From a bacterium (GTDB lineage Bacteria; UBA8248), in NCBI GenBank assembly GCA_965213625.1, contig CBDBZU010000004.1, positions 1,344,001 through 1,408,000 of the forward strand: 64,000 bases of DNA. The letters are read 5' to 3'. The notes beneath the pieces were generated by a model that ran no database searches, was not told the DNA's origin, and saw only the letters and a list, made by a program, of their open reading frames with translations. This document shows positions 362-26,682 of this stretch, one piece after another. Each line of letters begins with the position of its first letter. Position 1 is the first letter of the stretch. The position numbers and the translations under genes were made by a program.

Positions 362-1720
362 ATGCCGAGAAGAGTCGCCATAATCGGTGCGGGAGTTTCA
401 GGACTGGGGGCGGCCTGGACGCTGAACCGCCACCCCGACAGATTCGATTTCAGGCTCTTTGAGGCGCAGTCCCAGGTGGGCGGCAACGCCGTCACCGCCG
501 ACATGCCGCAAGACGACGGCGCCTCGATTCCCTTCGATATTTCCGTCACCGCCTGCATCCCCTCGGTATACCACCACATTCTTCTTCTGATGCGGCAATA
601 CGGGGTCGAGCTTGTCGATACCCGGTTCAGCTACAGTGTGAAGTATCGAGGCGGTGTTTATGCGCACGATTTTGACTCCGACATCAGGCGGCAGCTTCAA
701 CCGGAAATCGAGAAATTCCAGAAACTGTTAAAACGCCTCAAGTGGTTCGGCGCTCTCAGCCGCTCGCGCTCCAGGTTCCTGGCCGCCCTGAACCCGTTCA
801 ACTACGTGAGCATGGGCGCGGTTCTGAACCTGGGCAAATTTTCAGGCGATTTCATGTACAAGATCCTGAAGCCCATGTTCGTCAACTTCCTGATGGCCAC
901 GAATGTGTTCGATATGCCCGCGTCCCTGTTTTCGAGGTACCTGGAGTTCTTCGACATAGAATCAGCCACGCCCATGCAAACCTGGGGCGGCTGTACGCGC
1001 CGCATCTACGAGGAACTTTCAGCGGACTTCCAAGAGAAGATTTACCTCGAGCGGCCGGTCCGAAAGGTGTATAGAAGTTCATCCGAAGTCGTCGTGGAGG
1101 ATGAAGAGGGGAAAACGGAGAAGTTCGATGACGTCGTTTTCGCGTGCAACGCGAACCAGACGCTGATGATGCTGGATGCGCCGACGCGCTTCGAGAACTG
1201 GCTCCTCTCCTCGATAAGGTATGAGAGCGAACTGCACAATCACACGATCGTTCATTCGGACGCTTCGGTGCTGCCGGAGAGCGACGTCAAGGCGCTCGAA
1301 ACCCGGAGCAACCACATCGAGCAGTACAGCGTGCGGCCCGACAACTACGAGATTACCTACATCATGCACAACCAGCAGCCCTGGGCGAAGCGCTCGGACA
1401 AGCCGTGCCTGGTGACCTACAATCCCATCAGTCCTATTGATGAGAGGAAGATCGTCAAGAAGTGGTGGTTCCAGCACATCGTGCACGACGTGCCGCACGT
1501 GGCCTTGCTCATGCCGATGTTCCGCTTCGCTCAGGGCAGGAGGCGGACTTGGCACTGCGGTGCCCACACGCTCATCAACAGCCAGGAGACCTGTTTCGTG
1601 ACAGGCCTCGCCGCGGCAAGACAATTGGGAGCGGACTATCCGTTTCAAGATATTGAGGCGAGGAAGTGGTTCAACTTCTACGGGCGCACGATGTACGGCC
1701 GGCGTTTCAAGAAGGCGTGA
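362..1720 (+). CDS. FAD-dependent oxidoreductase (COG2907/amine-oxidase-like), probably lipid-modifying
   Basis: N-terminal Rossmann motif VAIIGAGVSGLGAA followed by LFEAQSQVGGN; GAGGGAGG RBS upstream; 452 aa. Confidence 0.8.
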   Translation: MPRRVAIIGAGVSGLGAAWTLNRHPDRFDFRLFEAQSQVGGNAVTADMPQDDGASIPFDISVTACIPSVYHHILLLMRQYGVELVDTRFSYSVKYRGGVYAHDFDSDIRRQLQPEIEKFQKLLKRLKWFGALSRSRSRFLAALNPFNYVSMGAVLNLGKFSGDFMYKILKPMFVNFLMATNVFDMPASLFSRYLEFFDIESATPMQTWGGCTRRIYEELSADFQEKIYLERPVRKVYRSSSEVVVEDEEGKTEKFDDVVFACNANQTLMMLDAPTRFENWLLSSIRYESELHNHTIVHSDASVLPESDVKALETRSNHIEQYSVRPDNYEITYIMHNQQPWAKRSDKPCLVTYNPISPIDERKIVKKWWFQHIVHDVPHVALLMPMFRFAQGRRRTWHCGAHTLINSQETCFVTGLAAARQLGADYPFQDIEARKWFNFYGRTMYGRRFKKA

Positions 1721-1848
1721 ACCGGGGCTTTCTTTGCGCGGATGAGTTGGCGAAGATTGGCGCGGCAACCTTGGGCGAGGCCGCCGATAGCGTTGCGGTG
1801 GCCATCGTGCGCGAGCCGGTATTACAATCATCCCGAATTCCTTGCTGA
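1717..1848 (+). pseudogene. Possible N-terminal remnant of an RraA/HMG-aldolase family gene
   Basis: GTGA overlap with the upstream stop; LAKIGAATLGEA resembles the LxxLG(V/A)AT(V/L)xEA start of HMG aldolases, then the frame degenerates. Confidence 0.3.
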
Positions 1849-2057
1849 TAGAGAGCAGCCATGGTCTGGTCGCGTAGTGCAGCGATTAAGATTTTCGTGA
1901 ACGGACGCGGGCAAGGAACAATTTTAAAATGGCAGGTCCGGTTTTGAGAAGAATTATCATCCGCAAACTGATAGGATATAATCATGGAAGGACGCGACAC
2001 GTATTGCTTTCTGCATCTGCCGACTCTGCTGATGGCACTCAAACGGAGGAAACTATA

Positions 2058-2873
2058 ATGCGCGCTCGTCTCGCCCGCACTGTATTCTTGCTTCTCGTAA
2101 TCTGCACGTACGCTCTGGCTCATCTCTCCACCGTGCCGCATGCGGAGAGCGCGACGCCCGAGGAGAAGGGTCTCCAGATCGCGCGCGAAACCCGCGAGAA
2201 AGCCAAAGGTTTCGGGAATTTCACGGCCGAGCAGAGCATGGTGCTTCGCAACAAGCACGGCCAGGAGAGCCGGCGTCAGCTCCGCGTGAAGGTTCTCGAG
2301 ACGGACGGAGGCGGCAACAAGAGCCTGTTCGTCTTCGATCGTCCGCGCGACGTGAGGGGCACTGCGCTGCTCGTTCACACCCATAAGAAGAAGAACGACG
2401 ACCAATGGCTCTACCTGCCCGCTCTCAAGCGGGTAAAGCGCATCAGTTCGTCGAACCAGTCGGGCTCGTTCATGGGCAGTGAATTCGCCTATGAGGACAT
2501 GGGTACGCAGGAGGTGGAGAAATATACCTACCGCTACTTGCGCGATGAGCCTTGCGGAAAGCTGACCTGCACGGTTGTCGAGCGCTTCCCGACGAGCAGG
2601 AGGTCGGGCTACAGGCGTCAAATCGTCTGGCAGGACAAGAGCGAGCTGCGCGCCTGGAAGGTGCAGTACTACGACCGGAAAAACTCACATTTAAAGACGC
2701 TCACACTGGGTAAATTCAAGAAGTATCTGGGTAAGTACTGGCAGGCCGGCGAAATGACGATGGTGAACCACCTGACGGGAAAGAGCACCGTTCTTAGCTG
2801 GAAGGATTACAAGTTCCGCACCAACCTCAAAGAGCGAGACTTCACCCGGACCGGGCTGAAACGGGTGCGCTGA
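2058..2873 (+). CDS. Outer-membrane lipoprotein-sorting (LolA-like) periplasmic carrier protein
   Basis: GGAGG RBS before ATG 2058; signal peptide; motifs PRDVRGTALL, DDQWLYLPALKRVKRI, SFMGSEFAYED. Confidence 0.85.
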   Translation: MRARLARTVFLLLVICTYALAHLSTVPHAESATPEEKGLQIARETREKAKGFGNFTAEQSMVLRNKHGQESRRQLRVKVLETDGGGNKSLFVFDRPRDVRGTALLVHTHKKKNDDQWLYLPALKRVKRISSSNQSGSFMGSEFAYEDMGTQEVEKYTYRYLRDEPCGKLTCTVVERFPTSRRSGYRRQIVWQDKSELRAWKVQYYDRKNSHLKTLTLGKFKKYLGKYWQAGEMTMVNHLTGKSTVLSWKDYKFRTNLKERDFTRTGLKRVR

Positions 2874-4129
2874 TGCCGCTGCGCGCCGCATTTTTCCGCG
2901 CGGTACTCGCCGCTGTCACGATATGGGCCGTACTCATCTTCGCCGGGGCGAGCCACGGGGCCGAAAGCATTGAGCACGAGTTTTCCGGCAGCCTGGACAT
3001 CGATGGCCGGTGGTATCCCCAACTCCAAGCCCATCCCGAACAGCGCACACACGCGAGCGGTTTGGCCGTCGAACCGAAACTCCATTTCAGGGGCGAGGGC
3101 GACTGGAGTTTCACGCTCGCGCCGTTTTTCCGCTACGACGGCGCGGACTCGCGCCGAACCCACGCCGACCTGCGCGAAGCCTACCTTCTGGTGTTCGGTG
3201 AAGCCGGCGAGGGGGAATGGGAGCTACGGCTGGGCGTGGACCGCGTGTTCTGGGGCGTCACCGAGTCGCAGCACCTGGTCGACATCATCAACCAGACCGA
3301 TCTCGTCGAACATCCGAACAAGGAAACAAAGCTGGGCCAGCCCATGGCCCACCTCACATTGTCGGCGGAGTGGGGCATCCTGGAGTTTTTCGCCCTCACC
3401 TATCACCGGGCGCGCACCTTCCCGGGCCTTCATGGCCGCCTGCGCTCCTCGATTCTCATAGACGATGAGCACGTCTCATACAAAAGCGCCGCCCAGGAGT
3501 GGCGCGTGGACCTCGCCGCCCGCTACAGCCACAGCTTCGGGCCGTTTGATTTGGGTGTCAGCGTATTCGACGGGACCAGCCGGGAGCCTTATATCATGCC
3601 GCACCTGGACTCTCTCGGCAGGCTGAGCCTGCGGCAGCACTATGAGAAAATTCGCCAGGTCAGCGTGGACGCCCAGCTCACAATCGAGTCGTGGCTGTTC
3701 AAGCTGGAAGCCCTTCAGCGCGAAGGCGCGCGAAACCTCCAGGGCGTGAAAGAGGACTTCGCCGCTTTCGTCGTCGGGGGTGAATACACCTTCAACTCCG
3801 TTTTCGGCTCGGCCGCCGACCTCGGCCTGCTAGCCGAATGGAATTACGACGAGCGGCGCGAGCGCTCGAACTCCGAGTTCCAGAACGACTTCTTCTTCGC
3901 CGTTCGCCTCGGGCTCAACGACGCCCAGAGCACGGAGCTTATCGCCGGCGTTCTGGCGGACGCGGACCACACCACGCGCACCATGAGCATCGAATTGAGA
4001 CGGCGCCTTTCGGATCAGTGGTCCATGAAGCTGGAATCGATCATTCTCATGGACGTCGACGAAGAAGACATCATCCATGACACGAGGCGGGACAGCTTCG
4101 TGGCCCTGAACGTGACGTATAATTTCTAG
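2873..4129 (+). CDS. Outer-membrane beta-barrel protein, partner of the LolA-like/MMPL system
   Basis: Signal peptide, amphipathic strands, DLREAY and VFWGVTES motifs, C-terminal YNF; translationally coupled (TGATG) to the upstream gene. Confidence 0.75.
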   Translation: MPLRAAFFRAVLAAVTIWAVLIFAGASHGAESIEHEFSGSLDIDGRWYPQLQAHPEQRTHASGLAVEPKLHFRGEGDWSFTLAPFFRYDGADSRRTHADLREAYLLVFGEAGEGEWELRLGVDRVFWGVTESQHLVDIINQTDLVEHPNKETKLGQPMAHLTLSAEWGILEFFALTYHRARTFPGLHGRLRSSILIDDEHVSYKSAAQEWRVDLAARYSHSFGPFDLGVSVFDGTSREPYIMPHLDSLGRLSLRQHYEKIRQVSVDAQLTIESWLFKLEALQREGARNLQGVKEDFAAFVVGGEYTFNSVFGSAADLGLLAEWNYDERRERSNSEFQNDFFFAVRLGLNDAQSTELIAGVLADADHTTRTMSIELRRRLSDQWSMKLESIILMDVDEEDIIHDTRRDSFVALNVTYNF

Positions 4130-4189
4130 ATCAAATTCTTTTCGTCTGCGTAACCGATAGAGTCGGGGTTTTTTAAAAATCCCTCTCCG

Positions 4190-4543: not shown

Positions 4544-4599
4544 ACCGTCTTCAGCGGGGCGCATGTATACGCGGGGAACGCCGCGCCGGCCGTTGCCGG

Positions 4600-6633
4600 T
4601 CAGGAAGTGAGGGCGACTGCCCGGTGGTCACTTGCCGCCCGATCAGATGAGAAGATCGGGCGCTTCGACTTGATTCGGAGCTTGAGGCTCTTGCGAGGGG
4701 TGCAGGTCGGAAACGGGTTTATCTTGACCGGGTAGCTCGATGGCAGCACTTCAAGCTCGAAGTAGTAGGCGATCATCAAAAGATTGATCGTCATTTGATA
4801 TTCCGCCACCCTCGGGCCGAGGCAGGTGTGCGTACCGAAACCGAATGCCCCGAACGCGCCGGGTTTCTTGTGCTCCTCGCGCCCGGAAAGATACCGGTCG
4901 ATGTCGAACTTCTCCGGATCCGGATAGTTCTCCTCCATGTAGTGAACGGCAGTGGACGCCAGCACGACGCGGGCATCGATGGGTAGTTCATAGCCCTCCA
5001 CGATGCAGCTGTTCATGACGGTTCTCAGCTGCAACGGTACGCTGGGATAGATCCGGAGGGTTTCTAGAATCAGCCGGTGGGCGGTGTCGATGTTCTCCTC
5101 CTTCAAGTCCTCAGGTCCCGGGTCTCCGTTCGCGAACAGCGCCTCGGCTTCCCTGCGCACACGCTGAAAGACATCCGGATGGGAGACCATCAAATAGAGC
5201 CCGAACGCGACGGCGGTGCCCATATACATGGCTGCGACGAACGGGATGATCATCATGAACCTGGTATCGGTATCCGGGAAGTACTGTGGGTCGCTGGTGT
5301 GCAGGCTGAGCAGGTCGTCGATCAGGTCGCGGGGTTGGTTTTCGCGCTGCGCAGGGGTGTGCGAGTTGCGGATCATGGAATAGACGTGGTCGATGCGCTG
5401 TCGGATGGCCTTCATCCGAGGCGTTCGCATGAAGAACTTCGGCAAAATCTTCTGGGCGTAGGTGATCAACATGCGGTTCTTGTATTTGTGGATGTCGTCC
5501 ACGTATTCTGAAAAATCCATACTGAACAGGAGCCGGGATACCTGGCCGGACATCAGAGTGCGGGTTGCGTCCTTGGCGACGAGCACGTCGCCCACGTTCC
5601 ACGAATCAAGCGCCAGCCGCATCTCTTCGAACAGGTCTCCGAGACGGTTGTTCAGGCGGCTCCGGGAGGAGGCCATCTGGAACGCCTTGCGCATGCGGAA
5701 ATGTTCGGCCCCGTCCATGCCCGGCAGGCTTCTCGATGCGCCGAGTACCTTCTCCATACCCTCCATGGTTTCCTTTGAACGCAAGTGCATCCGACCGTTC
5801 CGGTTTACCCAGATGTTGGCATCGTTCCCGGCGATGATGAAAACTCTCTTCTTGGAAAGGGGAGACTTGATTGCGAAAACGGGACCATAGTCGCGGTAAA
5901 GATCGGCCAGCAGTTTGGACGTATTCCCTTGCCAAAGCGAATCTTTGCGGAGCATTTTCCACAAGCTTACGTTGGGAATGGGTTTTGTCGCTATCGCGAT
6001 AGAGCGACTGACCGATGTCTCCACGACGGCGGCGGCGACGGAGCGGCTGATGCGGTCCAGCATGCCCAGCAGTTCGATTCGCTCGCGCGAAGCCTCGTAG
6101 TCTGCCGGCTGCAGAAGAAACCGGAACGCGTCGCAGGAATTGGCAAGTCCGATGATAATTGCGTCACGGGGGTCGGGTATGCCGTCTCCCAGGATCGTCT
6201 CGATGATTCGCCGACGTACGATTGCCCGAGACTCGCCGCTGGACATACCGTTGTCCGCTATAGCCGCGTTTCGCGAAAGAGACCAGAAGCCGCCGTTCGT
6301 ATAGTCCAGGATCCCGTTTTTCGACAACCGTCCGAGAGCATGATGCAGGATATCGTCCGACGTAGCGGCGATTTTCTCGACCCAGTAATTTATGCTGCGT
6401 GGCTCCGGATCGGCGGCAATTGCCGCCAGCACGGGGTCGAGAATATCGTCTCCCACGGGTGTGGAATCGTCCAGCGCAAACGTCTCGTGCGCGGTGTCGA
6501 GACGGGACTCGAGGTCAAGGTCCGCCAGCACGGCGCCTGCCATAACGCACGAGAGATTCCAGCCCGCAACCTGTTCGAGATAGCCGCTCTCTTCGTTCAG
6601 CAAGAGAAGCAGGAGCTCGTCAATTAGTTTCAT
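4600..6633 (-). CDS. Cytochrome P450 with N-terminal GPP34/GOLPH3-like domain
   Basis: Heme motif FGFGTHTCLG, ExxR (ETLR), PEKFDIDRY. The first ~210 aa (ELLLLLLNEESG, AGAVLADL, GDDILDPVL, PDPRDAIIIGLA) match the GPP34 pattern. Confidence 0.85.
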   Translation of the reverse strand: MKLIDELLLLLLNEESGYLEQVAGWNLSCVMAGAVLADLDLESRLDTAHETFALDDSTPVGDDILDPVLAAIAADPEPRSINYWVEKIAATSDDILHHALGRLSKNGILDYTNGGFWSLSRNAAIADNGMSSGESRAIVRRRIIETILGDGIPDPRDAIIIGLANSCDAFRFLLQPADYEASRERIELLGMLDRISRSVAAAVVETSVSRSIAIATKPIPNVSLWKMLRKDSLWQGNTSKLLADLYRDYGPVFAIKSPLSKKRVFIIAGNDANIWVNRNGRMHLRSKETMEGMEKVLGASRSLPGMDGAEHFRMRKAFQMASSRSRLNNRLGDLFEEMRLALDSWNVGDVLVAKDATRTLMSGQVSRLLFSMDFSEYVDDIHKYKNRMLITYAQKILPKFFMRTPRMKAIRQRIDHVYSMIRNSHTPAQRENQPRDLIDDLLSLHTSDPQYFPDTDTRFMMIIPFVAAMYMGTAVAFGLYLMVSHPDVFQRVRREAEALFANGDPGPEDLKEENIDTAHRLILETLRIYPSVPLQLRTVMNSCIVEGYELPIDARVVLASTAVHYMEENYPDPEKFDIDRYLSGREEHKKPGAFGAFGFGTHTCLGPRVAEYQMTINLLMIAYYFELEVLPSSYPVKINPFPTCTPRKSLKLRIKSKRPIFSSDRAASDHRAVALTS

Positions 6634-6822: not shown

Positions 6823-7563
6823 TTATCCGCCGTCAGGATCCGCCAGACGCTCGACCGCTTTTTTGTGAACAAGCCGCTCAAATGCGTCTTTCGGCGGCAA
6901 TCTTATCGCGCGCTCGAGTAGATTGCGCGCCTTCGCGCGGTTCTTTTCGGCATCCAGGCTCAGAAGGCCGAGCGCGTACTCGTATAAGGCCACCTTGTCC
7001 CGAGGCGTCAATTCGAGCGCCCGTTCGAAATGGACGAGTGCTTTCTCTTCGTCCGCCCCGTAGAGCAGACCGGCGAAGAATCCGCCTGCGCCGACGGCGC
7101 CCGCATGCCAGGCGGCCAGGCTTACATGGGCGGCCGCCATATTCGGCTCCAGCCGAAGCGCCTCCTCGATGGCATCGCGCACTATACCGGCGTAGCCTTC
7201 CTTGAGCGCCTGAAGCGTCCCGACCACCTGCGCCTGGCGGCCCATGGCGTGGGCTAGTTGGAGATGGGCCTCGGGGTTGACCGCGTCGAGCTTTATGGCT
7301 TCTCGTGCGGACTCCTCGGCCCGCTCGAACAAGCCCGCCTTTTCGCCTTTCGGCGCAAGGTAGTAGCCGTATATCGCCAGTGAATCGGCGGCCAATGCAT
7401 GGCCTTTGGATGTGCCGAGCGTCCGGGCGAGAGAGGCGGCCTCCATGAAGCGGCCCTCGGCGTATGCGGCGCGGGCTTCTTCTATCGACTGTGCGCATGC
7501 AGTTCCCGCCGGATCGAACGAGCACGAAATCATCAGGCACACGAGGATTATGATTTTACGCAT
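6823..7563 (-). CDS. Secreted TPR-like helical repeat protein
   Basis: Signal peptide MRKIIILVCLMISC; repeats such as AIKLDAVNPEAH, ALRLEPNMAAAH, ALELTPRD. Start re-called from 7815 to ATG 7563. Confidence 0.7.
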   Translation of the reverse strand: MRKIIILVCLMISCSFDPAGTACAQSIEEARAAYAEGRFMEAASLARTLGTSKGHALAADSLAIYGYYLAPKGEKAGLFERAEESAREAIKLDAVNPEAHLQLAHAMGRQAQVVGTLQALKEGYAGIVRDAIEEALRLEPNMAAAHVSLAAWHAGAVGAGGFFAGLLYGADEEKALVHFERALELTPRDKVALYEYALGLLSLDAEKNRAKARNLLERAIRLPPKDAFERLVHKKAVERLADPDGG

Positions 7564-7667: not shown

Positions 7668-8690
7668 CTAATCCGGCTTGCGGGCGAGAATGAAATACAT
7701 TGGGGTGAAAATGCCGAGGCGGCCCGTTTCGGCGAATACTTCGGCGGCGAGGTTCAGCAGGCTCGATACCCTGGTCGTCCCGCGCGGCACGATTCTCAGG
7801 AGTTCGAGAAACCATAGCGTGCTGTGCGTCAGCCGACGCCCGACGGCCGAGGAGCGGAAGCTAGCCAGGGACAGACCGGAGCCGACCAGCGGTTGATACC
7901 AGGGAATGCCGGGCGGCGCCTCGGCGGCGAGGTCGCACGATTCGAGCAACTCAAAACCTGCCTGACGCACTGCTTCTTCGATTTCCCGAGGCCGGGCGAT
8001 AAACGGCAGGCCGCCGCTATGCTCCATATCGGCCTTGAGCTTCAGCATTTTGGCATCTTGCGCATCGAAAAGGTCGGTCATGCAGTATTCGTAAACCCCC
8101 AAAAGAGCGCCGGGCTTGAGTACACGAAACGCCTCGGCATAGACACCGGCCTTGTCCGGCGCGCAGCAGGTCGCCTCGATAGAATAGGCGGCGTCGAAGC
8201 TGCCCTCCTGCGCATCCAACTGCATGAAATCGCATTCGATAAAATCGGCCAGATGGCTCAAGCCCGCCGCTTTGGTCCGTTTCGCGGCCCGTTCAATGTG
8301 CATCGCATTGTTGGTGATACCGGTAATCCGGGCACCGGAAAAACGGGCAATTTCGATCAGAGGCCCGCCTACGCCGCAACCCAGGTCGACCGCCTCCATG
8401 CCGGGCTTAAGATTCAGCCTGTGAGTGATGTAATGCTCATGGCGCGCGAGCGAGGCGGCGAAGCTCTCTCCTTCGACACGCGGCGCGAAATGGAATGAGT
8501 GTCCCCATCCGTACTCGTAGAAATCGGTGACCAAGTCGTAATAGTTGTTCGCGAAGTTCAGGTAATCAGTCTTGCGCTCGTCCAGGCCGCCGCGCTCGGC
8601 GCCTCCGTAGCGCCGGTCGTACTCCTGCGCGCTAACTTCGACACGGTCACCGGATTTTGCGTCTTTCAGGATATCAGTGAGCTTGGGCAT
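7668..8690 (-). CDS. Sterol 24-C-methyltransferase-like protein (SMT-A, ERG6/SMT1 family)
   Basis: YYDLVTDFYEYGWGHSFHFAPR, SAM motif DLGCGVGGP, YSIEATCCAP, C-terminal GIFTPMYFILARKP. Confidence 0.9.
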   Translation of the reverse strand: MPKLTDILKDAKSGDRVEVSAQEYDRRYGGAERGGLDERKTDYLNFANNYYDLVTDFYEYGWGHSFHFAPRVEGESFAASLARHEHYITHRLNLKPGMEAVDLGCGVGGPLIEIARFSGARITGITNNAMHIERAAKRTKAAGLSHLADFIECDFMQLDAQEGSFDAAYSIEATCCAPDKAGVYAEAFRVLKPGALLGVYEYCMTDLFDAQDAKMLKLKADMEHSGGLPFIARPREIEEAVRQAGFELLESCDLAAEAPPGIPWYQPLVGSGLSLASFRSSAVGRRLTHSTLWFLELLRIVPRGTTRVSSLLNLAAEVFAETGRLGIFTPMYFILARKPD

Positions 8691-13928: not shown

Positions 13929-14046
13929 TGTAAGGCTGGCTTACGACTGCTTTGATGATGTTCGAGGCGGGGAAGTCACAGAATCGCATCGTTCTTTGAG
14001 CGATTACATAGATATATTCGAGTCGACCTGAAAACGAGGAGCCGTC

Positions 14047-17630: not shown

Positions 17631-19931
17631 ATGGCGGAAGCCAAAGACATGGGCGGCGCCGTAGTCGGCGGTTCTCTACCCTTTCTGGACGACCCCGAAA
17701 AGGCGGCGGGCGCCGCGGATTATCTCGACGACCTCCAGCTTCCGGGGATGCTGGTCGGCAAGGCGCTTCGCAGCGAACACGCGCACGCCGAGATAGTATC
17801 GGTCGATGCGAGCGAGGCGCTGCGCGTTCCGGGCGTCGTCTCCGTTCTCACGGGAGAGGACCTGCCGAACCATCCCTGCATCACCGCCCATAATAGGGCC
17901 ATGCCCATCATCGCCCGCGACAGGGTGCGCTACATGGGCGAGGTGGTCGCCCTCGTCGCGGCGGAAACGCTCGAGGCGGCCGAGGCGGCGACGCGGCTCA
18001 TCGAGGTCGAATACCGGCCCCTGCCCGTCATCTCCTGTCCGCGCGAGGCGATGAAAGAAGACGTAGAAATCATTTTCCCCGGCGGGAACGTGCTCAACCA
18101 GGCCAAGATACGAAAAGGGGACGTCGAGGAGGGCTTCGAGCAGGCCGACGTGATCATCGAGAACGAATACTCCACACCCTCCATCGATCACCTATATCTC
18201 GAAGTGGAGGCGGCTTGCGCGAGTCCGAACCCCGGCGGCGGAATACAAATCTGGGGCTCGACCCAGCAGCCCTTTCTGGTGAGACAGAATGTCGCCCGCA
18301 TACTGGGCCTCAAGGGCGAGAGTTCGGTTCGTTTCGTCCAGACGACCACCGGCGGAGCTTTCGGCGGAAAGAGTGAAGCGAGTCTCGACGTGTGCCTGCG
18401 CGTAGCAGTCCTTGCCCGCGCCGCCGGCAGGCCCGTAAAGCTCGTGTATTCGCGCGAGGAAAGCATGATTGCCTCAACCAAGCGCCACGCCTCTTTCATC
18501 CGCTCCAAAACCGGGGCGACGAAGGACGGACGCCTGGTGGCCGTCGAGGTGGAAGTATGGCTGGACAAGGGGGCGTATGTGGCAAACGGGGGAGACAACC
18601 CGCCCGCCTTCAAGCGCGCAACCTACCATGCCGCAGGTCCCTACCAGGCGCCCAACGTGAAGGTGGACGTTCATTGCGTGCACACGAATCACCCCTACGG
18701 GGGACAGATGCGCGGGCCGGGATGTCCCCAGGTTCACTTCGCGGGCGAGCAGCAGATGGACGAACTCGCCAGTGTATTGGGAATGGACCCCATCGAGATC
18801 AGGCGTTTGAACGGGTTGCGGGTTGGTACCCGGACGGCCTGGAACCAGCACCTGCCCGAGAGCGTGGGATTTCTCGATACGCTGAAGGAAGTGGAGCAGG
18901 CCTCATCCTGGGGTAGTGCGGGCAATGGGGACCGAAGGGCCGAGGATGGCCGCTTGCGCGGGCGCGGCGTGGCGAGTTGTCTCTACGGGACGGGCAACGC
19001 CTACTCCCCGGCCGAGGCGCACGTCTTCCTCACGGCAGAAGGAAAGGTGCAGGTGGCCGCCGGGGTCGTGGATTTCGGCCAGGGCAGTAAGACGGTGCTT
19101 TGCCAGATCGCCGCCGAAACGCTGGACGTTCCCTATTCGGAGTTCCTGATGGATAGCGTGGATACCGCCATCGACCCGTTCGGCGGCACGAGTTCGAGTT
19201 CGCGCATCACCATGCAGGGCGGCAAGGCGGTCTACAACGCTTCACTCAAGGCGCGGGACGAGTTGCTGCGTTTGGGCGGGATTCTGTTGGAGGCGGACCC
19301 CGAAGACTTGGAATTGCGCGGCGGCGTGGTTCGCTCGCGGTCGCATGAGGAAACGAGTATTACGCTTGCCGAGATAGCTGGAGCTTTCGTCGCCGATGAA
19401 CTCAAGCAGATCGGCGCTGCGGACAGCATTCCGCCGCCCGCCAAGACCGACAAGGAAACCGGCTTGGGCGAGCCGTATGAAATTTACGGGTTCGGCAGCC
19501 AGGTGGCCGAAGTGTTGGTGGACGAAGAGACGGGCGAGGTGGAGGTCACCGGCGTCTGGGCCGCGCACGACGTGGGCCGGGCCATCAGCCCAATGGGCGT
19601 GGAGCAGCAGATCGAGGGTGGCGTCTACATGGGCATCGGTTTTTGCATGATGGAGGAAGTCGTTCAGAGCGAGGGCATGATGCAGAACCCCGACATGCAC
19701 GGCTATCTCGCGCCCACGGTGGAGGACGTACCGGACCGGGTGGCGTCCCTCATCGTGGAGGATGCATATTCGAACGGCCCTTACGGGGCCAAGGGAGTCG
19801 GGGAGCAAGTGACCGTTCCCACGGCGGCGGCCATCGCCAACGCGGTTTATAACGCCACGGGCGTACGGTTCCACGACCTGCCCCTGACGCCGGACAGGGT
19901 CGCCATGGCGCTTTTGAAGAAGAGGTCATGA
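17631..19931 (+). CDS. Xanthine dehydrogenase-family molybdopterin-binding subunit
   Basis: GGAFGGK, MRGPG, GQGSKT, QQIEGG, GAKGVGE, AIANAVYNATG motifs. Confidence 0.9.
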   Translation: MAEAKDMGGAVVGGSLPFLDDPEKAAGAADYLDDLQLPGMLVGKALRSEHAHAEIVSVDASEALRVPGVVSVLTGEDLPNHPCITAHNRAMPIIARDRVRYMGEVVALVAAETLEAAEAATRLIEVEYRPLPVISCPREAMKEDVEIIFPGGNVLNQAKIRKGDVEEGFEQADVIIENEYSTPSIDHLYLEVEAACASPNPGGGIQIWGSTQQPFLVRQNVARILGLKGESSVRFVQTTTGGAFGGKSEASLDVCLRVAVLARAAGRPVKLVYSREESMIASTKRHASFIRSKTGATKDGRLVAVEVEVWLDKGAYVANGGDNPPAFKRATYHAAGPYQAPNVKVDVHCVHTNHPYGGQMRGPGCPQVHFAGEQQMDELASVLGMDPIEIRRLNGLRVGTRTAWNQHLPESVGFLDTLKEVEQASSWGSAGNGDRRAEDGRLRGRGVASCLYGTGNAYSPAEAHVFLTAEGKVQVAAGVVDFGQGSKTVLCQIAAETLDVPYSEFLMDSVDTAIDPFGGTSSSSRITMQGGKAVYNASLKARDELLRLGGILLEADPEDLELRGGVVRSRSHEETSITLAEIAGAFVADELKQIGAADSIPPPAKTDKETGLGEPYEIYGFGSQVAEVLVDEETGEVEVTGVWAAHDVGRAISPMGVEQQIEGGVYMGIGFCMMEEVVQSEGMMQNPDMHGYLAPTVEDVPDRVASLIVEDAYSNGPYGAKGVGEQVTVPTAAAIANAVYNATGVRFHDLPLTPDRVAMALLKKRS

Positions 19932-20458: not shown

Positions 20459-22747
20459 TCACTTCTTCCGGTCGAGAGCCATCAGCAAGGGCGGCAGAAG
20501 CAGGAAGTCGGTGAGGAGCCCAAAGATGATCGTGATCGAAACCATGAGACCGAGTGTCCAACTCCCCTCGTAGCCCGATAACGTGAACATCAGGAAGCCC
20601 GCCGACAAAACCACGGTCGTTGTCCATAGCGCATGTCCTACGGTGCGAAAGACGGCGCCTACGGCCTCGGGCGCGGTAAGGCCCTCGCGGCGGCTCTTCA
20701 GGTATTTGCTCAGAAAATGAATCGTGTCGTCCACGATAATGCCGAAAGCGATTATGGTCATCACGGAGGCTGCTAGACTCACGCGGCTTACCAGATAACC
20801 CCACAGGCCGAAGGTCATGGCGGCGGGAATGAAGTTGGGCACGAGGCTGATGAGGCCCAGGCGCACGTTTTTGAAAACCAGGATCAATATGAGCGAAATG
20901 AGGGTCATGCCGATGAACGTTCCGCGCAGCATGCTTTTCATGTTTCGTTGCGTGAGGTGAGCGAAGATCATGCTGATACCCGATGCTTCGGCTGCGAATT
21001 CGGGTATGTTGGCGCGCAGCCAGGTCTGCGCGCGCAGATCGAGCGCACGTAAGCCTCGAGCCGAGACGCCCTGGACCGTTACAGTCATTCGTGTTGCGGA
21101 TTTCCCGACATCGATGCGGTCGTTGAGGTCGCTGCCGAACGGAAGGGAAAACTCATAAAGCAGCAGATATTGCGCGGAGAGCCTGGAATTCCCAGGCAGG
21201 CGATAAAAGGCCGGGTCGTCGCCATGCATGTTCTTGTTCAAGCGCTTCATGATATTCGTGAACGCCCGGACGTGGGTGACTTCGGGCTGTTTTCGGTACC
21301 AATCGGCGAAGGCCTCTACTTTTTTCAGGTATCCGGGGTCGGTAATGCCGCCTTCGCGCCCCGCTTTCAACGAGTATTCCAGCGAATTCAAGCCGGTCAG
21401 GTTTTTGATCACGAAATCCGTGTCGCGCCGGAACTGGTAACGATCATCGAACTGCTTCGTCCAATCTTCGCTCAGTTCATTCCGGGGAATACCGGTGAGC
21501 AAAAGGATCGTCAATATGGAGACGAACCAAAACAGGGGCGTGCGGCGCGCGACGACGAAAGCGCCGAAACGATCGAAAAAGCCGGACACTCCGTTGTGGC
21601 GACGAGGCGCGCGCAGCGGCAGGATTGAAAGCAGCGTGGGTAGAAGTGTGATGGAATAGAAAAAAACGGATAAAACCCCGAACGCCACCAGATTGCCCAG
21701 TTCCTGAAAAGGCGGTGAATCTGAGGTGTTCAGGCTCAGGAAACCGATCGCCGTCGTGAGCGAGGTGAGAAACACCGGCCAGATGTTGCTGCGAAGCGAT
21801 TCCATGATCGCCCCGTTTCTGTCCAGACCTTTTCGCATGGCGATAAGAGTGGTCGAGACGATGTGGATTGAATGGGCAACGGCAATCACCATGACGATGA
21901 TCGGGAGGCCGGCGGTGATGGGGCTGAACACCAGGCCTACCCACCCTGTGAATCCCATGGTGGTGTTGATGGAGAATATAATAACGAAAACGATAGCCAG
22001 GGTGCCGAGCAGCGAGCGCAGTAGAAGGGCCGTACCGATGATGACGACGAAAAACGCGATAAGCCCGATGTTCTCCATCGTACTCGCGGTGGCGTCGGCG
22101 ACGGTGCGGTTCAAAACGACGTTGCCGGTCAGGTAGTACGTGATATCGGGATGGCTCGTGCGGGCCTTGCTCAGAACGGCGTTCAGATAATCGGTTATCT
22201 CGACTACCACATTTTCTTGTTTTTCAGGCAAGACGAAAGTGATCACCAGCCCGCCCACGCGTCCACCCTGAGAGACCAGACGACCGGAAAGATCGGCCGA
22301 ATTCAGCGCGACCTCCCTGATGCGCGCGAGGTCGGTGTCGCTGAGCGCGCTCGCTTCATCGACGAGCGGCTCGACTATCAGATCATCCCCCTCCGCCCGG
22401 CTGTGGTTGTAGTTCGTGAGGGAGTCGACCCGGCTCGAATGCGGCGTCTTCCAGGCGGCTTCGGTCAACTCCTCGATGGCGCCGAGCGCCTCACGTGTGA
22501 ACACCGAGCCCTCGCGAGTCGCAATGGCGATGAGCGCCGTATCGGATTTGGAGTAGGTATCCTGCAAAATGTCGAAAGCAGCGAGTTGGGGATTGTCTTT
22601 GCCCAATAAAATACGGTAGTCATCCGAGACGGTGATGTAGCGGGTTCCCGCCGTCATCAGCAGCATGAGCAGAGAAACCAGCCCGACGATCAGCCAACGG
22701 CGGCGCAGAACAACATCTAGGTAGTGGTCCACATGCAAAAGAGTCAT
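20459..22747 (-). CDS. MMPL/RND family lipid transporter
   Basis: Two-repeat RND architecture; TSLTTAIGFLSL, FGIIVDDTIHF; GAGG RBS before ATG 22747. Confidence 0.9.
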   Translation of the reverse strand: MTLLHVDHYLDVVLRRRWLIVGLVSLLMLLMTAGTRYITVSDDYRILLGKDNPQLAAFDILQDTYSKSDTALIAIATREGSVFTREALGAIEELTEAAWKTPHSSRVDSLTNYNHSRAEGDDLIVEPLVDEASALSDTDLARIREVALNSADLSGRLVSQGGRVGGLVITFVLPEKQENVVVEITDYLNAVLSKARTSHPDITYYLTGNVVLNRTVADATASTMENIGLIAFFVVIIGTALLLRSLLGTLAIVFVIIFSINTTMGFTGWVGLVFSPITAGLPIIVMVIAVAHSIHIVSTTLIAMRKGLDRNGAIMESLRSNIWPVFLTSLTTAIGFLSLNTSDSPPFQELGNLVAFGVLSVFFYSITLLPTLLSILPLRAPRRHNGVSGFFDRFGAFVVARRTPLFWFVSILTILLLTGIPRNELSEDWTKQFDDRYQFRRDTDFVIKNLTGLNSLEYSLKAGREGGITDPGYLKKVEAFADWYRKQPEVTHVRAFTNIMKRLNKNMHGDDPAFYRLPGNSRLSAQYLLLYEFSLPFGSDLNDRIDVGKSATRMTVTVQGVSARGLRALDLRAQTWLRANIPEFAAEASGISMIFAHLTQRNMKSMLRGTFIGMTLISLILILVFKNVRLGLISLVPNFIPAAMTFGLWGYLVSRVSLAASVMTIIAFGIIVDDTIHFLSKYLKSRREGLTAPEAVGAVFRTVGHALWTTTVVLSAGFLMFTLSGYEGSWTLGLMVSITIIFGLLTDFLLLPPLLMALDRKK

Positions 22748-22848
22748 CGCCTCAGTGTGAAAGGTTCGGTACCGCTTCACGGACACCGATTCCAGCGCTA
22801 AGCGTTCATTTCATGGTTATGTAATGCGTGTCTCTGAGCGAACATCGT

Positions 22849-24022
22849 TTACCATTCGCTCTGTTTCGTCGCGCGTACGTGGTCAGGCATCCTGTAGCTG
22901 ATGCCTCCCCTGTCGTACTGCGCAGCGTCGAAAATCTGGGAGAACGCGTCTTCTCGAAAGAGTTTGGTGCCTCTCAACAATTGGAAGAGGCGTTCCCTGA
23001 CCCGGTAGTAGCCCAGCACCAGGGTTCTGCTTCTCAATGTCTTCGGATATTGGTAGGTGTCGGCGAGTTCGTTGCCTATGAGCGCTCGTGAAAGGCGGTA
23101 GGCGTACTTTTCCAGAGATTTTATTTCTGCTTCGCTCGTCAGCCCCGACATTATCGGAATGGCCTTGAATACCGTATTCGCCACGGCCAGACAATCAGAG
23201 TCCGGCGGCGGCTCGCACATGGAGGCGATATTGCGAAGCTCCCTCGCCTCTTGCTCGTTGGTGAAGAGGATGGTTTCGGGAACTCCGAGCAGATAGCCGG
23301 CGTAGCGCCAGATACTGACGATGCTTTCTTTTTCCTCCTGCGTGAGCTTGCCGCCCAGCGCGATTGCGTGTTCGAACTGACGTATGGAAAAAGTGTACAA
23401 GGAAACTCCGCCCAGGTGCGCCGCGCTCAGAGGCGTTCCCCACGCTTCGTGATCCCAGGCGTCGGAATTCGCCATCAGATGCCTGATCCGGGCATGGACG
23501 AAGCGAATGCGCATGGATATCTTCCATCCGTCGCCGTCTCTATCCAGCCCACCGGGATAATAAATTTCGACCATGTGGCGGTTATTCTGCCTGAGGCGTC
23601 TGATGGCTCCGTCATCCAGTCCGGTCACGCGCCCGGTGATGAAGAAAGATTTGGCGACGAGCGTCCCGAAGCCTTCCACCGCGCTGCCGACGGCGTATGC
23701 GATGAGCATGTTGGTCATGTTTTCGAAGAAGGCGCGCATGCCCGGCTTGAAGGCCTCGAAGTCGACCCAGGGAGGCACGTCGGAATCGACTTTCTCGAAG
23801 AAGTCGCGCAAGACTTTCGGAGCTTCGCGCAGAACGCCGTGGTGCTGCTCTATACCGGCCTCGATGAATGCGTGCAGGTCGTAGGCAGGGAGGGAGGATA
23901 TCTCCTCCATCACCCAGTTCGGCATCGCCTATGGTGGTGTGCCGGATGTAGTTGTCTACTGATTCTTGATCGAATTGATGATTGTTCTGATAACCTTCAA
24001 CGTATGCGGATGGTATTTGCAT
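22849..24022 (-). pseudogene. DUF2236/MpaB(Lcp)-like heme oxygenase, apparently frameshifted near 23914
   Basis: PPWVDF, RIRFVHARIR, WGTPL, WRYAGYLLGVP. The N-terminal segment MQIPSAY...HTTIGDAEL (ATG 24022 with RBS) is in a different frame from VMEEISS... Confidence 0.7.
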
Positions 24023-24393
24023 TGCCAAAAGGCCCCCTTCTAAGCCTATGCAGTGCTTACGCGAATCTCCCGGTGAGACGAAGTATGAATTCATCCGTAA
24101 AAGACAAGTCCGTCTATTCATTGGGTCACACCGGAACTAAGCGATGAGTAGACACTATCCAAAAGTAGTCAAAATATCCTCGCAACCTTGATGGCTCCTG
24201 ATAACTATTTGTTTCACCATTCTTTATGATATCAATATAATTACTTTAACATATTATCAAATTCATTTGGCTGCGCAAGAATTTTTTCAGACAACCCCGG
24301 ATGGGTTGCCTGTCCACATTCACCCGCAATCTCCGGCGGAAACAACTCGCAATCTCGAATCACTTGCCTGATGGGCGAGGCTGAATGGCGACG

Positions 24394-26682
24394 TCACTTC
24401 TTCCGGTCGAGAGCCATCAGCAGGGTCGGCAGAAGCAGGAAATCGGCCAGGAGCGCGAATACGAGCGTGATCGCCACCATCAGGCCGAGCGTCCTGCTGC
24501 CGTGGAACCCCGATGTGGCGAACACCAGGAAGCTCAGTGACAATACCGCCGTCGTCGTCCATAGCGCCTGGCCCACAATTCGAAAGGCGGCGCGCACGGC
24601 TCCAGGCGCGGGGATGCCCATCCGGCGGGCTTTTTGATATCGGCTCATAAAGTGAATGGTATCGTCCACGATGATTCCGAACGCGATGGCGGTCATCAAC
24701 GAGCCGGCAAAGTCCACCTGGCCGACCATATAGCCCCACAGGCCGAAGGTCATGGCGGCGGGGAGAAAGTTGGGCACGAGGCTGATGAGCCCCAGCCGAA
24801 CGCTTTTGAAAACCAAGATCAGGAGTAAAGAGATAATCAGCATGGCGATGATCGTGCCGCGCAGCATGCCATGGATGTTTCTAATCGATAGATGCGCGAA
24901 GATCATGGTGATGCCGGATGCCTCGGCCGCGAATTCGGGTATGTTGGCGCGGAGCCAGGCTTTGGCGTGCTCGTCGAGTTCGCGCTGGTCCTTGGAGGAT
25001 CGGTTGCGAACCATGACGCTCATTCGCGTCGTGGATTTGGCGACGTCGATGCGGTCGTTGAGGTCCATGCCGAAGGGAAGCGAGAACTCATACAGCAGAA
25101 GATACTGCGCGGCGAGCTTCGGATCCTCAGGGAGCCGGTAGTAGGCCGGGTCGTCTCCGTGCATGTTCTTGTTCAGACGCTTCATGATGTTCGTAAAAGC
25201 TTGGACGTGGCTCACTTCCGGCTGCTCCCGGTACCAATTGGCGAAGGTCTCGACTTTTTTCAGGTATTCAGGCTCGGTGATGCCGCCTTCGCGCCCCGCC
25301 TTGAGCGCGTATTCCAGGAAATTCATGCTGTTCAGGTTATCAAAGATGAAATCCGAATCGCGGCGGAACCGGTAGCGCTCGTCAAAATAGTGCGCCCATC
25401 TGTCGGTCAACTCGTTGCGTGGAATGCCTGTGATGAGAACAGCCGTCAGAACGGCGACGAAACAGAGCAGAAACACCCGGCGCTTGACCACGAAAGCGCC
25501 GAATCGGACGAAAAAAGGGGATTTGCCGGAGGGGATTCGGCGTGCGCGCAACGGCAGAACCGAAAGTACGGCCGGCAGCAGGGTCATCGAGTAGACGAAG
25601 GCCCACAGAACGCCGAGCGCCACGAGATTTCCCAGAATACGGGCTGGAGGCGAATCGGAGTAGTTCAGGCTCAGGAATCCGATCGCGGTCGTGATCGAAG
25701 TCAGGAACACCGGCCATGCGTTGCTCCGAAGCGATTCGGCAATCGCCGCATCCTTGTCCAACCCATGGTCCATGCCCAGCAGCGTGGTCGTGATGATGTG
25801 GATTGAGTGGGCGACGCATGTCGCCATGACAATGGTCGGTACGCCGGCATTTGTGGGGCTGAACACCGTACCGAGCCAGCCCGCAATCCCCATCGTGTTG
25901 AAGATGACGAACCCGATCACGACGATGATGGAAAACGTGCCGAGAAACGAGCGCAAAAGAAGTGTGCTGATGACGACAATCATGATGAACACGATTGGAG
26001 CCAGGAAGACGAAATCATTGTAAGTCGCCACGGAGAAGGTGCGGTTACTGATCACGTCACCGCTCAGGTAGTAGGCGATTTCCGGGTATCTGGCCCCGGC
26101 TTTCTTCAAGATAGCGTTCAGGTAATCGTTTATAGAGACCACCGCAGCGTCCATGTCGTCGGGCAGAACGAAAGTGACCGCCAGCCCGGCCACATGCCCC
26201 TCCCGGGAGACCAGACGACCGGGCAGATCGCGCGACTCGAGCGCGATTTTCCTGATTCGCGCGAGATCGGCATCGCTCAGCGAGCGCGCATCATCGACGA
26301 GCGGCTCGACGATCAACTCATCTCCCTTCGCCCAGCTATGGGTATAGTTCGTAAGTGAGTCGACCCGTCTGGAATGGGGTGTTCGCCACGCGGCTTCGGT
26401 TAATTCCTCGAGAGCGGCGAGCGCTTCTCGGGTGAACACCGAGCCCCCACGCGGAGCGATGGCGATGAACGCCATGTTGGATGTGGAAAAAATGTTCTCG
26501 AGAGCCTTGAAATCGGCGTACTGTGGATTTTCTTCGCTGAACAAGATGCGGTAGTCGTTCGTGACGCCGATGAAGAGCGCGCCGGTACCCGTGAGCAGCA
26601 TGATCAGCGTGGCGATCGCGATAACCGGCCAACGATAGCGTAGAACGGCGTTGGTATAGCGGTCCAATAGTATGGAAATCAT
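24394..26682 (-). CDS. MMPL/RND family lipid transporter
   Basis: Close paralog of 20459-22747 with identical C-terminus LLMALDRKK; FGIIVDDTIHF. Confidence 0.9.
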   Translation of the reverse strand: MISILLDRYTNAVLRYRWPVIAIATLIMLLTGTGALFIGVTNDYRILFSEENPQYADFKALENIFSTSNMAFIAIAPRGGSVFTREALAALEELTEAAWRTPHSRRVDSLTNYTHSWAKGDELIVEPLVDDARSLSDADLARIRKIALESRDLPGRLVSREGHVAGLAVTFVLPDDMDAAVVSINDYLNAILKKAGARYPEIAYYLSGDVISNRTFSVATYNDFVFLAPIVFIMIVVISTLLLRSFLGTFSIIVVIGFVIFNTMGIAGWLGTVFSPTNAGVPTIVMATCVAHSIHIITTTLLGMDHGLDKDAAIAESLRSNAWPVFLTSITTAIGFLSLNYSDSPPARILGNLVALGVLWAFVYSMTLLPAVLSVLPLRARRIPSGKSPFFVRFGAFVVKRRVFLLCFVAVLTAVLITGIPRNELTDRWAHYFDERYRFRRDSDFIFDNLNSMNFLEYALKAGREGGITEPEYLKKVETFANWYREQPEVSHVQAFTNIMKRLNKNMHGDDPAYYRLPEDPKLAAQYLLLYEFSLPFGMDLNDRIDVAKSTTRMSVMVRNRSSKDQRELDEHAKAWLRANIPEFAAEASGITMIFAHLSIRNIHGMLRGTIIAMLIISLLLILVFKSVRLGLISLVPNFLPAAMTFGLWGYMVGQVDFAGSLMTAIAFGIIVDDTIHFMSRYQKARRMGIPAPGAVRAAFRIVGQALWTTTAVLSLSFLVFATSGFHGSRTLGLMVAITLVFALLADFLLLPTLLMALDRKK

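Follow-up and report, generated by a model that had tools for sequence, protein, structure and literature searches.

The window analysed here is a stretch of 64,000 nucleotides (G000:C4:1344001-1408000) from a bacterial genome, G000, of 4.15 Mb on four contigs, with an estimated contamination of 5%. The elongation factor G of G000 shows 94-95% identity to those of metagenome-assembled genomes (MAGs) labelled Nitrospinae/Nitrospinota, and by sequence the organism is affiliated with these MAGs. Between positions 362 and 26682 the window contains genes for three members of the sterol methyltransferase (SMT) family, together with genes for oxidative enzymes and envelope proteins, which a sequence-only reading had taken for a single 26-kb island that takes up host sterols, alkylates and desaturates them and routes them through the envelope. 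Pfam profiles run on the window proteins (gathering cut-offs 21.7 bits for Sterol_MT_C and 23.2 bits for DUF1302) confirm all families named for this region in that reading, from which a GPP34 domain on the P450, a TPR lipoprotein, an IS1182 element, a molybdoenzyme gene and a frameshift in the RND gene MMPL1 were missing. The region is a mosaic of a conserved core and later additions. The core of approximately 16 kb (2058-17266, or 362-17266 if the flanking flavoenzyme is included) comprises two divergent operons and a convergent pair, and what was added later is a copy of IS1182 where the divergent promoters lie, a molybdoenzyme gene with repeats on either side and a tandem pair of MpaB-RND modules beside liv genes. 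The notion of a single island thus stands for the core, which recurs in other genomes, but not for the full 26 kb, as the molybdoenzyme gene is bounded by repeats and MpaB-MMPL modules are also found in congeners without SMT and oxidosqualene cyclase (OSC) genes. In the following, G-labels denote genomes (G000 being the source) and L-labels loci (L009 = G011); the panel of relatives consists of 22 congeners and 18 more distant genomes. The core and the flanking flavoenzyme gene contain the following features:

362..1720, plus strand: FAD flavoenzyme of the amine-oxidase family (Pfam Amino_oxidase, 62 bits)
2058..2873, plus strand (open reading frame (ORF) opens at 1929; likely start 2058): LolA-like periplasmic carrier with a signal peptide (Pfam LolA_like, 207 bits)
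2873..4129, plus strand: probable outer-membrane β-barrel, DUF1302-like (signal peptide; C-terminal ...VTYNF; DUF1302 19.6 bits, below 23.2)
4600..6633, minus strand: GPP34-P450 fusion of the GPP34_L type (Pfam p450, 149 bits; N-terminal GPP34, 95 bits)
6823..7563, minus strand (ORF opens at 7815; likely start MRKIIILVCLMISC at 7563): TPR lipoprotein (TPR Pfam matches; lipoprotein-like N-terminus)
7668..8690, minus strand: SMT_A, canonical sterol methyltransferase by sequence (Sterol_MT_C, 80.5 bits; Region I FYEYGWGHSFHF)
8746..9771, minus strand: SMT_B, second canonical sterol methyltransferase by the same marks (Sterol_MT_C, 82.3 bits; Region I LFEYGWGKSFHF)
9768..12063, minus strand: MMPL1, RND transporter of the sterol-sensing-domain (SSD) type, with a +1 frameshift near 11780 (MMPL 104 bits and Sterol-sensing 31 bits in 9768-11822)
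14047..14970, plus strand: outer-membrane β-barrel (OMP_b-brl, 50.9 bits; signal peptide; C-terminal ...LRYRF)
15103..16140, plus strand: KshA-type Rieske non-heme iron oxygenase (Rieske 68 bits and KshA_C 81 bits)
16232..17266, plus strand (ORF opens at 16088; likely start 16232): SMT_C, divergent SMT-family methyltransferase (Sterol_MT_C, 57.6 bits; Region I FMVWGWGESLHF)

SMT_A, SMT_B and SMT_C are the only Sterol_MT_C matches in the whole genome, and none is found in 14 control genomes, so that their clustering is not due to chance. SMT_A and SMT_B share 66% of their residues, and SMT_C is 37% identical to either. The Region I consensus Y/F-E-Y/F-G-W-G-x-x-F-H-F, which corresponds to yeast positions 81-91, is present in SMT_A (YEYGWGHSFHF) and in SMT_B (FEYGWGKSFHF, with Phe at position 81). 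Functional SMTs all have a set of 25 residues in common (Brown & Welander, 2025 preprint, 10.64898/2025.12.19.695621). These were mapped via motifs, and the mapping was checked on the S. foetidus protein LXNI01016685 (L102), which was assayed and found inactive and in which the Region III proline insertion is visible; SMT_B retains all 25. The same preprint describes Gly249, together with Phe81 and/or Phe83, as a necessary but insufficient mark of propylation, which yields 24-isopropyl side chains (10.64898/2025.12.19.695621). The residue mapped to position 249, by a 168-residue spacing that is possibly off by one, is Gly in SMT_A (but next to Tyr81 and Tyr83), Asn in SMT_B (next to Phe81) and Ile in SMT_C. 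Since the propylation marks are split between the two, neither SMT_A nor SMT_B is predicted to make 24-isopropyl sterols alone, and none of the three proteins appears to carry the full set of marks of a propylating SMT. The contig of an assayed propylating SMT, JGIcombinedJ30088_10000835, is not among the 79 loci from the metagenome scan.

The phylogenetic position of the three proteins was assessed in a tree of 147 sequences, consisting of 144 SMT-like (Sterol_MT_C) proteins and, as an outgroup, three other methyltransferases of G000, without named eukaryotic and assayed references. All 144 SMT-like proteins split from the outgroup, with a Shimodaira-Hasegawa-like approximate likelihood ratio (SH-aLRT) support of 99, which bears out the earlier assignment of the island proteins to the SMT family rather than to other methyltransferases. 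SMT_A and SMT_B fall inside a clade of 84 MAG proteins from at least nine phyla (SH-aLRT 100) and, within it, into a group of 20 in which Pseudomonadota, Nitrospirota, Binatota and Thermodesulfobacteriota are mixed (SH-aLRT 95). SMT_B is not a recent tandem copy, as its sister is an alphaproteobacterial MAG protein (L010; 80% identity, SH-aLRT 99) and not SMT_A, the nearest relative of which is found in L009 (81% identity). SMT_C belongs to a separate, long-stemmed clade (SH-aLRT 99) outside the main clade of 130 sequences, a placement that carries a long-branch warning. The best 120 clusters listed for SMT_C are all at least 77% identical to it and mostly 344 amino acids long, and the few that are named come from Nitrospira sp. 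and Gemmatimonadota MAGs. Judged by motifs and tree, SMT_A and SMT_B are canonical SMTs, and SMT_C falls into a divergent clade that is tightly conserved and in which the sterol-binding Region I is altered. A cluster representative of 477 residues (P0149), 84% identical to SMT_C, also contains a KshA_C domain, and is either a Rieske-SMT fusion or a merge of the two neighbouring genes made in gene calling.

The heme motif (FGFGTHTCLG) of the island GPP34-P450 is intact and an ExxR motif is present, and a motif scan of the protein finds no acid-alcohol I-helix motif of the form (A/G)Gx(D/E)T(T/S). It is not a CYP51: the best CYP51 match has an E-value of 1.8e-19 and covers residues 409-635 only. 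The metal ligands of the Rieske oxygenase are intact, including the CPH...CPFH cluster and the DDGHLRYVH iron motif. By these ligands and the heme motif, both enzymes look active. Its best match in the Protein Data Bank (PDB) is KshA (PDB entries 2zyl and 4qdc), with which it has in common the Rieske and KshA_C domains and the intact ligands, but the match (E 2e-23) is confined to residues 9-183. The context of KshA is catabolic, whereas that of the island protein is biosynthetic, and the island contains no KshB-type reductase. Identification with SdmA was likewise rejected, as the equivalog model matches with 36-37 bits against a cut-off of 600, in the Rieske domain only. When the Rieske oxygenase is used as a query, the Protein Atlas returns generic Rieske clusters; one named 'cholesterol 7-desaturase family' comes last, at rank 30 of 30. 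Orthologues in congeners are 85-94% identical, and the enzyme may act in hydroxylation, desaturation or demethylation.

The nearest solved relative of the flavoenzyme is LkcE (PDB, E 8e-25). No paralogue is present in the genome, and an identity as HpnE was rejected (TIGR03467 25 bits against a cut-off of 283), the HpnE-like gene that adjoins HpnCD being a separate one for a different protein. Seven of 80 loci, from several phyla, have a homologue (71-79% identity) no more than 10 kb away from a canonical SMT gene, a homologue adjoins the fused squalene epoxidase-oxidosqualene cyclase (SE-OSC) gene in L048 and L088, and G016 has a 91% identical homologue at the same end of the island. Within the flavoenzyme gene, window positions 871-1441 show a summed contig depth approximately 8-fold above that of the flanks (~560-1990 against 60-160, four runs), and this stretch is not a repeat in the genome. 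A stretch of at least 95% identity is seemingly present in other organisms of the sample, which hints at a recent gene transfer.

The envelope proteins of the core include the LolA-like carrier (N-terminus MRARLARTVFLLLVICTYA), which matches PDB entry 3bk5, a 'putative outer membrane lipoprotein-sorting protein', with an E-value of 2e-80 and has orthologues of 80-86% identity in L009, L069, G003 and G016. The earlier claim of two outer-membrane barrels is clear for 14047-14970, with its OMP_b-brl match, whereas for 2873-4129 it draws on the signal peptide, the C-terminus and the DUF1302 match below the cut-off. Orthologues of the former (46-82% identity) are located upstream of the Rieske gene in congeners, and those of the latter are 84-99% identical. 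The TPR lipoprotein has orthologues at the same position in congeners (67-81% identity). Compared with L009 and L069, where the gene is a single ORF of 805 amino acids, MMPL1 contains an additional base in an A/G homopolymer, which interrupts the frame, and an N-terminal ORF of 112 amino acids (11725-12063) matches paralogue residues 19-91. Logan contigs of four runs, all from one sample, cover positions 10547-11948 with no differences; the frameshift is thus present in the population DNA, and an assembly error was rejected.

In its organization this set resembles HpnN and the BstABC system of Methylococcus capsulatus (PMC10942540), where an RND protein, a periplasmic carrier and a TPR-like protein lie beside sterol genes and follow an inner-to-outer-membrane logic. 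The individual proteins differ. The BstA equivalog NF045600 reaches 31 bits (MMPL3) against a cut-off of 1400, the HpnN models reach 30-104 bits against cut-offs of 752 and 1100, the periplasmic protein is LolA-like and not a PF12974 binding protein of the BstB type, and a PDB sequence search gave no match between the TPR lipoprotein and BstC.

The statement that the window contains no squalene epoxidase or oxidosqualene cyclase is true, yet misleading, since both are encoded elsewhere on the same contig. A genome-wide search finds a fused SE-OSC, an ORF of 1188 amino acids located 1.28 Mb from the SMT genes, with 727 bits for the oxidosqualene cyclase model TIGR03463 compared to 265 bits for hopene cyclase, 72 bits for squalene epoxidase, and the DCTAE motif. 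It is followed by a second GPP34-P450 (L002 11457-13487), which is 38.6% identical to the island copy, and then by a fifth SSD-type RND gene. A NUDIX-HpnC-HpnD fusion with two SQS_PSY domains is encoded by a single ORF of 719 codons (G000:C4:3631491-3633650; L093 7491-9650, minus strand), next to an HpnE-like amine-oxidase gene, and the same frame of 719-724 codons occurs in five congeners. One ERG4/ERG24 homologue is present in the genome. A reading in which only exogenous sterols are used, as had been concluded from the window, is weakened by these genes for cyclization and squalene synthesis. A stand-alone P450 (182 bits; nearest PDB entries 7wzl and CYP97-type) and an outer-membrane barrel are found on the 3.6-kb contig G000:C3 (L091 26-1231), the membership of which is uncertain.

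A scan of one genome per species confirmed at least 503 relatives of SMT_A and SMT_B, nearly all from MAGs, and clusters of this kind have been published (PMC10070321, PMC9531527), so that the earlier view of bacterial SMTs as rare does not hold for this habitat. In the best 80 SMT loci from other genomes, examined up to 10 kb on each side, the Rieske family is found 13 times, GPP34-P450 12 times, MMPL 10, TPR 8, LolA-like and flavoenzyme 7 each, outer-membrane barrel and SE-OSC 4 each, and MpaB not at all. The island families also recur as a set in other orders and other phyla, e.g., in L015, L017, L023 and L082. Within the genus the gene set recurs across related genomes, as had been proposed for comparison: the order barrel/LolA-like, then GPP34-P450, TPR, (SMT), MMPL1, then barrel, Rieske, (SMT_C) is found in L009, L069, G002, G003, G013, G014, G016 and G020, with identities of 64-94%. 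An exception is the barrel with 46-48% in L009 and L069, in which the core identities range from 46 to 89% overall. SMT_C directly follows the Rieske gene in six of the seven island-bearing congeners and an intact canonical SMT is present in three, while SMT_B and the IS1182 element are confined to G000 among the island-bearing genomes of the genus. Overall, SMT genes are present in 10 of 22 congeners and the fused SE-OSC in 4 of 22; the 18 more distant relatives have no SMT.

Two types of OSC locus are observed in the genus. The first is canonical, with flavoenzyme, SMT, SE-OSC, CYP51, SdmA and SdmB in G012 and the same start in G005, flavoenzyme and SMT being located directly beside SE-OSC in both. 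The second consists of SE-OSC, GPP34-P450 and SSD-RND and is found in G000, G016 and G020; the latter two are the only island-bearing congeners with SE-OSC (two of seven). The HpnCD fusion is kept in all five island-bearing congeners without a cyclase. At a second locus in G011 (L176; G011:C1:2269000-2288999) two SMT-like genes, 42-43% identical to SMT_B, lie beside a distant Rieske gene (25%).

Comparison with published systems shows both common and distinct traits. SMT-cluster enzymes of sponge symbionts methylate sterols in vitro (PMC10070321). The clusters of Brown et al. (2023) likewise derive from uncultured bacteria with ERG6-type SMTs, with which SMT_A and SMT_B share Region I, they contain a fused SMO-OSC (one gene ID for ERG1 and ERG7 in Supplementary Data 1), and they pair a canonical SMT (~41-42% identity to ERG6) with a distant one (~35%) (PMC10070321). 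Unlike G000, which lacks CYP51, SdmA and SdmB, these clusters have CYP51, ERG24, sdmA and sdmB next to the OSC gene, and the GPP34-P450, KshA-type Rieske oxygenase, flavoenzyme and RND/LolA-like/barrel set are not named in the available text or Supplementary Data 1 (PMC10070321). The clusters of steroid genes (CSGs) in Ircinia, from sponge-symbiont MAGs of 10 phyla, have an ERG24-CYP51-LSS core flanked by SMT or FDFT1 and show horizontal transfer, purifying selection and SMT enrichment (PMC9531527); the clade of SMT_A and SMT_B likewise mixes phyla, but the ERG24-CYP51-LSS genes are not clustered in G000, where the island is centred on SMTs, oxygenases and transport proteins. The GPP34-P450 has the same two-domain architecture as GPP34_L, which is reported to be exclusive to sponge symbionts of many phyla (PMC11706023); G000 has two copies. 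For GPP34_L a manipulation of host phagocytosis is proposed, and the word 'sterol' occurs zero times in the paper (PMC11706023). In G000 the SMT operon contains one of the two copies and the other immediately follows SE-OSC, and this points to lipid chemistry. Because GPP34_L is published from sponge symbionts only and the nearest homologues are found in MAGs titled as sponge bins, a sponge-associated lifestyle of the organism is suggested. Ten runs labelled sponge, marine or viral metagenome, metagenome, or organism B share 0.05-0.06 of words, from which no habitat claim is drawn.

Gene content, motifs, synteny and distribution are observed, and the substrates, products, order of steps and transport direction given below follow from them by inference. 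With moderate confidence, we consider it most likely that the core alkylates sterol side chains, modifies the sterols further and moves the products through the cell envelope, and that the cell is able to produce the substrate itself. Of the sequence-only reading, methylation of the side chain, oxidative tailoring and envelope trafficking thus remain plausible, whereas uptake of host sterols does not stand as written. In such a pathway the NUDIX-HpnC-HpnD protein and the HpnE-like enzyme would produce squalene, which the fused SE-OSC would convert into a protosterol. Since canonical CYP51, SdmA and SdmB are lacking, the protosterol made in the cell would remain 4,4,14-methylated when it serves as the substrate, unless the CYP51 and SdmA/B steps are carried out by the atypical P450s and the Rieske enzyme. 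SMT_A and SMT_B would use S-adenosylmethionine to methylate the Δ24 side chain of the sterol or protosterol, and SMT_C would contribute a methyl group of another type. The GPP34-P450, presumably held at the membrane via its lipid-binding domain, would introduce oxidative changes together with the Rieske oxygenase and the LkcE-like flavoenzyme. For transport, the RND pump could hand the products to the LolA-like carrier in the periplasm, which would pass them on to the outer-membrane barrels, with the TPR lipoprotein as an accessory. The island probably also works on sterols from outside, being kept by relatives without a cyclase.

Several observations weigh against a sterol pathway of this kind. 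In SMT_C the residues MVW replace YEY at positions 81-83 (Region I MVWGWGESLHF), in departure from the consensus, and 23 of the 25 conserved residues are retained (T78S and F89L deviate); SMT_A retains 24, with Q154 replaced by His. Among 11 inactive SMTs, seven deviate at such residues and four keep all of them (10.64898/2025.12.19.695621), because of which the 25 residues are necessary marks and not a proof of activity. The genome has five p450 matches, none of them a CYP51, the SdmA model matches best to the Rieske protein of the island, far below the cut-off as given above, and SdmB is not found, the 3Beta_HSD matches reaching 57 bits at most. These negatives are meaningful, as the same searches identify all three in the congener G012, beside SE-OSC (CYP51 E 3e-102 to the Methylococcus enzyme, SdmA 381 bits, SdmB 306 bits), and without canonical CYP51 and SdmA/B an endogenous pathway would stop at an unusual substrate. 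The SMT genes and SE-OSC are 1.28 Mb apart, the other island families occur only in a minority of the 80 SMT loci, and the canonical SMT is a short C-terminal remnant in G002, G013 and G014 and absent in G020. In G002, G003, G011, G013 and G014 no cyclase of any kind was found, also with the SE-OSC protein as a query. With five of the seven island-bearing congeners lacking a cyclase, the island is independent of de novo synthesis and its normal substrate need not be home-made; exogenous sterol use thus stays a live option for the island as such, though G000 has its own supply. None of the transport proteins is an orthologue of BstA, BstC or HpnN, the MMPL1 gene of this population carries a frameshift, and the MMPL2/MMPL3 family occurs in 17 of 22 congeners, seven of which have neither SMT nor OSC. 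A sequencing-run search found no RNA run containing the region.

The cyclase-less congeners raise the question whether the island acts on sterols of a host or neighbour only, with import by the barrels, the LolA-like carrier and the RND proteins, remodelling by the SMTs and oxygenases, and delivery of the products to the envelope or the host. Three of these five genomes are assemblies of one or two contigs with 94-95% completeness, and one of the five, G011, has the nearest copy of the SMT_A operon (81-89% identity) without SE-OSC. The large distance between the SMT genes and SE-OSC in G000 fits the same idea, as does a Chlamydiae MAG without other sterol genes that is reported to have a propylating SMT (Brown et al., PMC10070321). 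It is nevertheless an unlikely explanation, because G000 has an SE-OSC with the DCTAE motif and squalene synthesis genes, because SSD-RND and GPP34-P450 genes of the same families adjoin SE-OSC, and because SMT and flavoenzyme genes adjoin SE-OSC in G005 and G012. Moreover, export is the known function of RND pumps of the HpnN/MmpL type.

Less probable still is that the substrates are not sterols at all, but squalene from HpnCDE, other triterpenoids or a membrane lipid, so that the SMT-like proteins, above all SMT_C, would be triterpene methyltransferases and the RND/LolA-like set would move a lipid. SMT-family enzymes of Botryococcus methylate squalene, which lends such a function some credit. 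The rebuilt Region I (MVW for YEY) and two deviating residues of SMT_C, its separate long-stemmed clade, and the P450s without the usual oxygen-activation motif point in the same direction, and SSD-type RND proteins also carry hopanoids and mycobacterial lipids, according to PDB names. Retention of the HpnCD fusion in all five cyclase-less island-bearing congeners checked would agree with it too, but it does not discriminate, since only these five island-bearing genomes were checked for it. Against this stand SMT_A and SMT_B, which are canonical in the tested motifs, and the location of SMT, flavoenzyme and GPP34-P450 genes next to SE-OSC in several phyla. A sterol-degradation locus, in which the KshA-type oxygenase, the P450 and the flavoenzyme would open the steroid and genes for acyl-CoA and hydroxyacyl-CoA dehydrogenases and a CoA ligase at 36-52 kb would shorten the side chain, is very improbable. 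In its favour, the Rieske protein has KshA as its closest solved relative, and the segment 36408-51661 encodes SDRs, a 3HCDH, acyl-CoA dehydrogenases, an HMGL-like lyase and an AMP-binding ligase. However, the three methyltransferases have no catabolic role, the KshA match spans the N-terminal half only, and the β-oxidation-like genes lie at least 10 kb away beside branched-chain amino-acid transporter genes, where amino-acid catabolism fits equally well.

A speculative and rather doubtful proposal may be made for SMT_C, namely that it is not a C-24 enzyme but methylates host-supplied sterols at C-26, towards precursors of aplysterol and 26-methylstigmastane, or at another position than C-24. 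The proposal draws on the tight conservation of SMT_C (at least 77% identity in the best 120 listed clusters), its occurrence in different phyla and its position behind the Rieske gene and near the GPP34-P450 gene. No report of a C-26 sterol methyltransferase was found in the literature searched, and Brown et al. call for such an enzyme (PMC10070321).

The later additions to the region comprise the following features:

~12408..13929, minus strand: IS1182-family insertion sequence between the divergent operons (NCBIfam transpos_IS1182, 361 bits)
17619..19931, plus strand: large subunit of a xanthine-dehydrogenase-family molybdoenzyme (MoCoBD_1/2 and Ald_Xan_dh_C)
20459..22786, minus strand: MMPL2, SSD-type RND transporter (MMPL 110 bits and Sterol-sensing 45 bits)
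22849..23925, minus strand: MpaB/Lcp-family (DUF2236) putative oxygenase, paired with MMPL2 (MPAB_Lcp_cat, 65 bits)
24394..26682, minus strand: MMPL3, SSD-type RND transporter, adjoining liv ABC-transporter genes (MMPL 101 bits and Sterol-sensing 34 bits)

Besides this copy, the genome contains at least 32 matches to the IS1182 element, 25 with at least 95% identity; the element is absent from the same site in L009 and L069. The many near-identical copies in a 4.15-Mb genome point to a recent transposition burst. Such bursts are common in host-restricted bacteria. In run X3, a contig connects the end of the insertion sequence (13928) with position 4390. The molybdoenzyme gene has at least nine paralogues in the genome, is bounded by dispersed repeats at 17300-17400 and 20013-20400, and is missing beside the SMTs in 79 of the 80 loci, the lone match being 25% identical; it is probably a passenger. 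Dispersed repeats of ~90-190 bp, with tens of genome copies of 72-99% identity, occupy the intermodule gaps at 4160-4565, 17300-17400 and 20013-20400. MMPL2 is 59-65% identical to the other paralogues, the MpaB/Lcp protein matches rubber oxygenase with an E-value of 1e-5, and MpaB-MMPL pairs or their remnants are present at three other places in the genome; these modules are tied to sterols by paralogy only. Directly after MMPL3 follow liv-type genes (27615-31888). Near them, at 36408-51661, are genes for three acyl-CoA dehydrogenases, an AMP-binding ligase, two short-chain dehydrogenases/reductases (SDRs), an HMGL-like lyase, a 3-hydroxyacyl-CoA dehydrogenase (3HCDH) and an IclR regulator, which probably serve the catabolism of branched-chain amino acids or fatty acids. 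A Kelch-repeat protein, of a eukaryote-like repeat family, is encoded at 48227-49411 (minus strand).

SMT clusters of sponge symbionts, Ircinia CSGs and GPP34-P450 fusions have been published before (PMC10070321, PMC9531527 and PMC11706023). New are the joining of a full envelope set to an SMT operon, the co-occurrence of two kinds of SMT among the three encoded in the island, a genome that has a cyclase but neither CYP51 nor SdmAB, and the decoupling of the island from the cyclase at the genus level. The locus offers a compact set of testable parts, i.e., two canonical and one divergent methyltransferase, three oxidative enzymes and an envelope-spanning transport set, and it ties the GPP34-P450, published as a host-manipulation factor, to lipid chemistry. 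The genus provides a natural experiment, with sterol-makers on the one hand and island-keepers without a cyclase on the other, in which the question of own versus host sterols can be answered. The side-chain alkylated steranes 24-isopropylcholestane and 26-methylstigmastane are used as the oldest chemical evidence for animals, and a bacterial origin of their precursors in sponges is disputed (PMC10070321, PMC12541326). If the proposal for SMT_C were true, part of the 'sponge-specific' sterol record would come from a horizontally spreading bacterial cassette, and the GPP34-P450 'symbiosis factor' would be a sterol enzyme.

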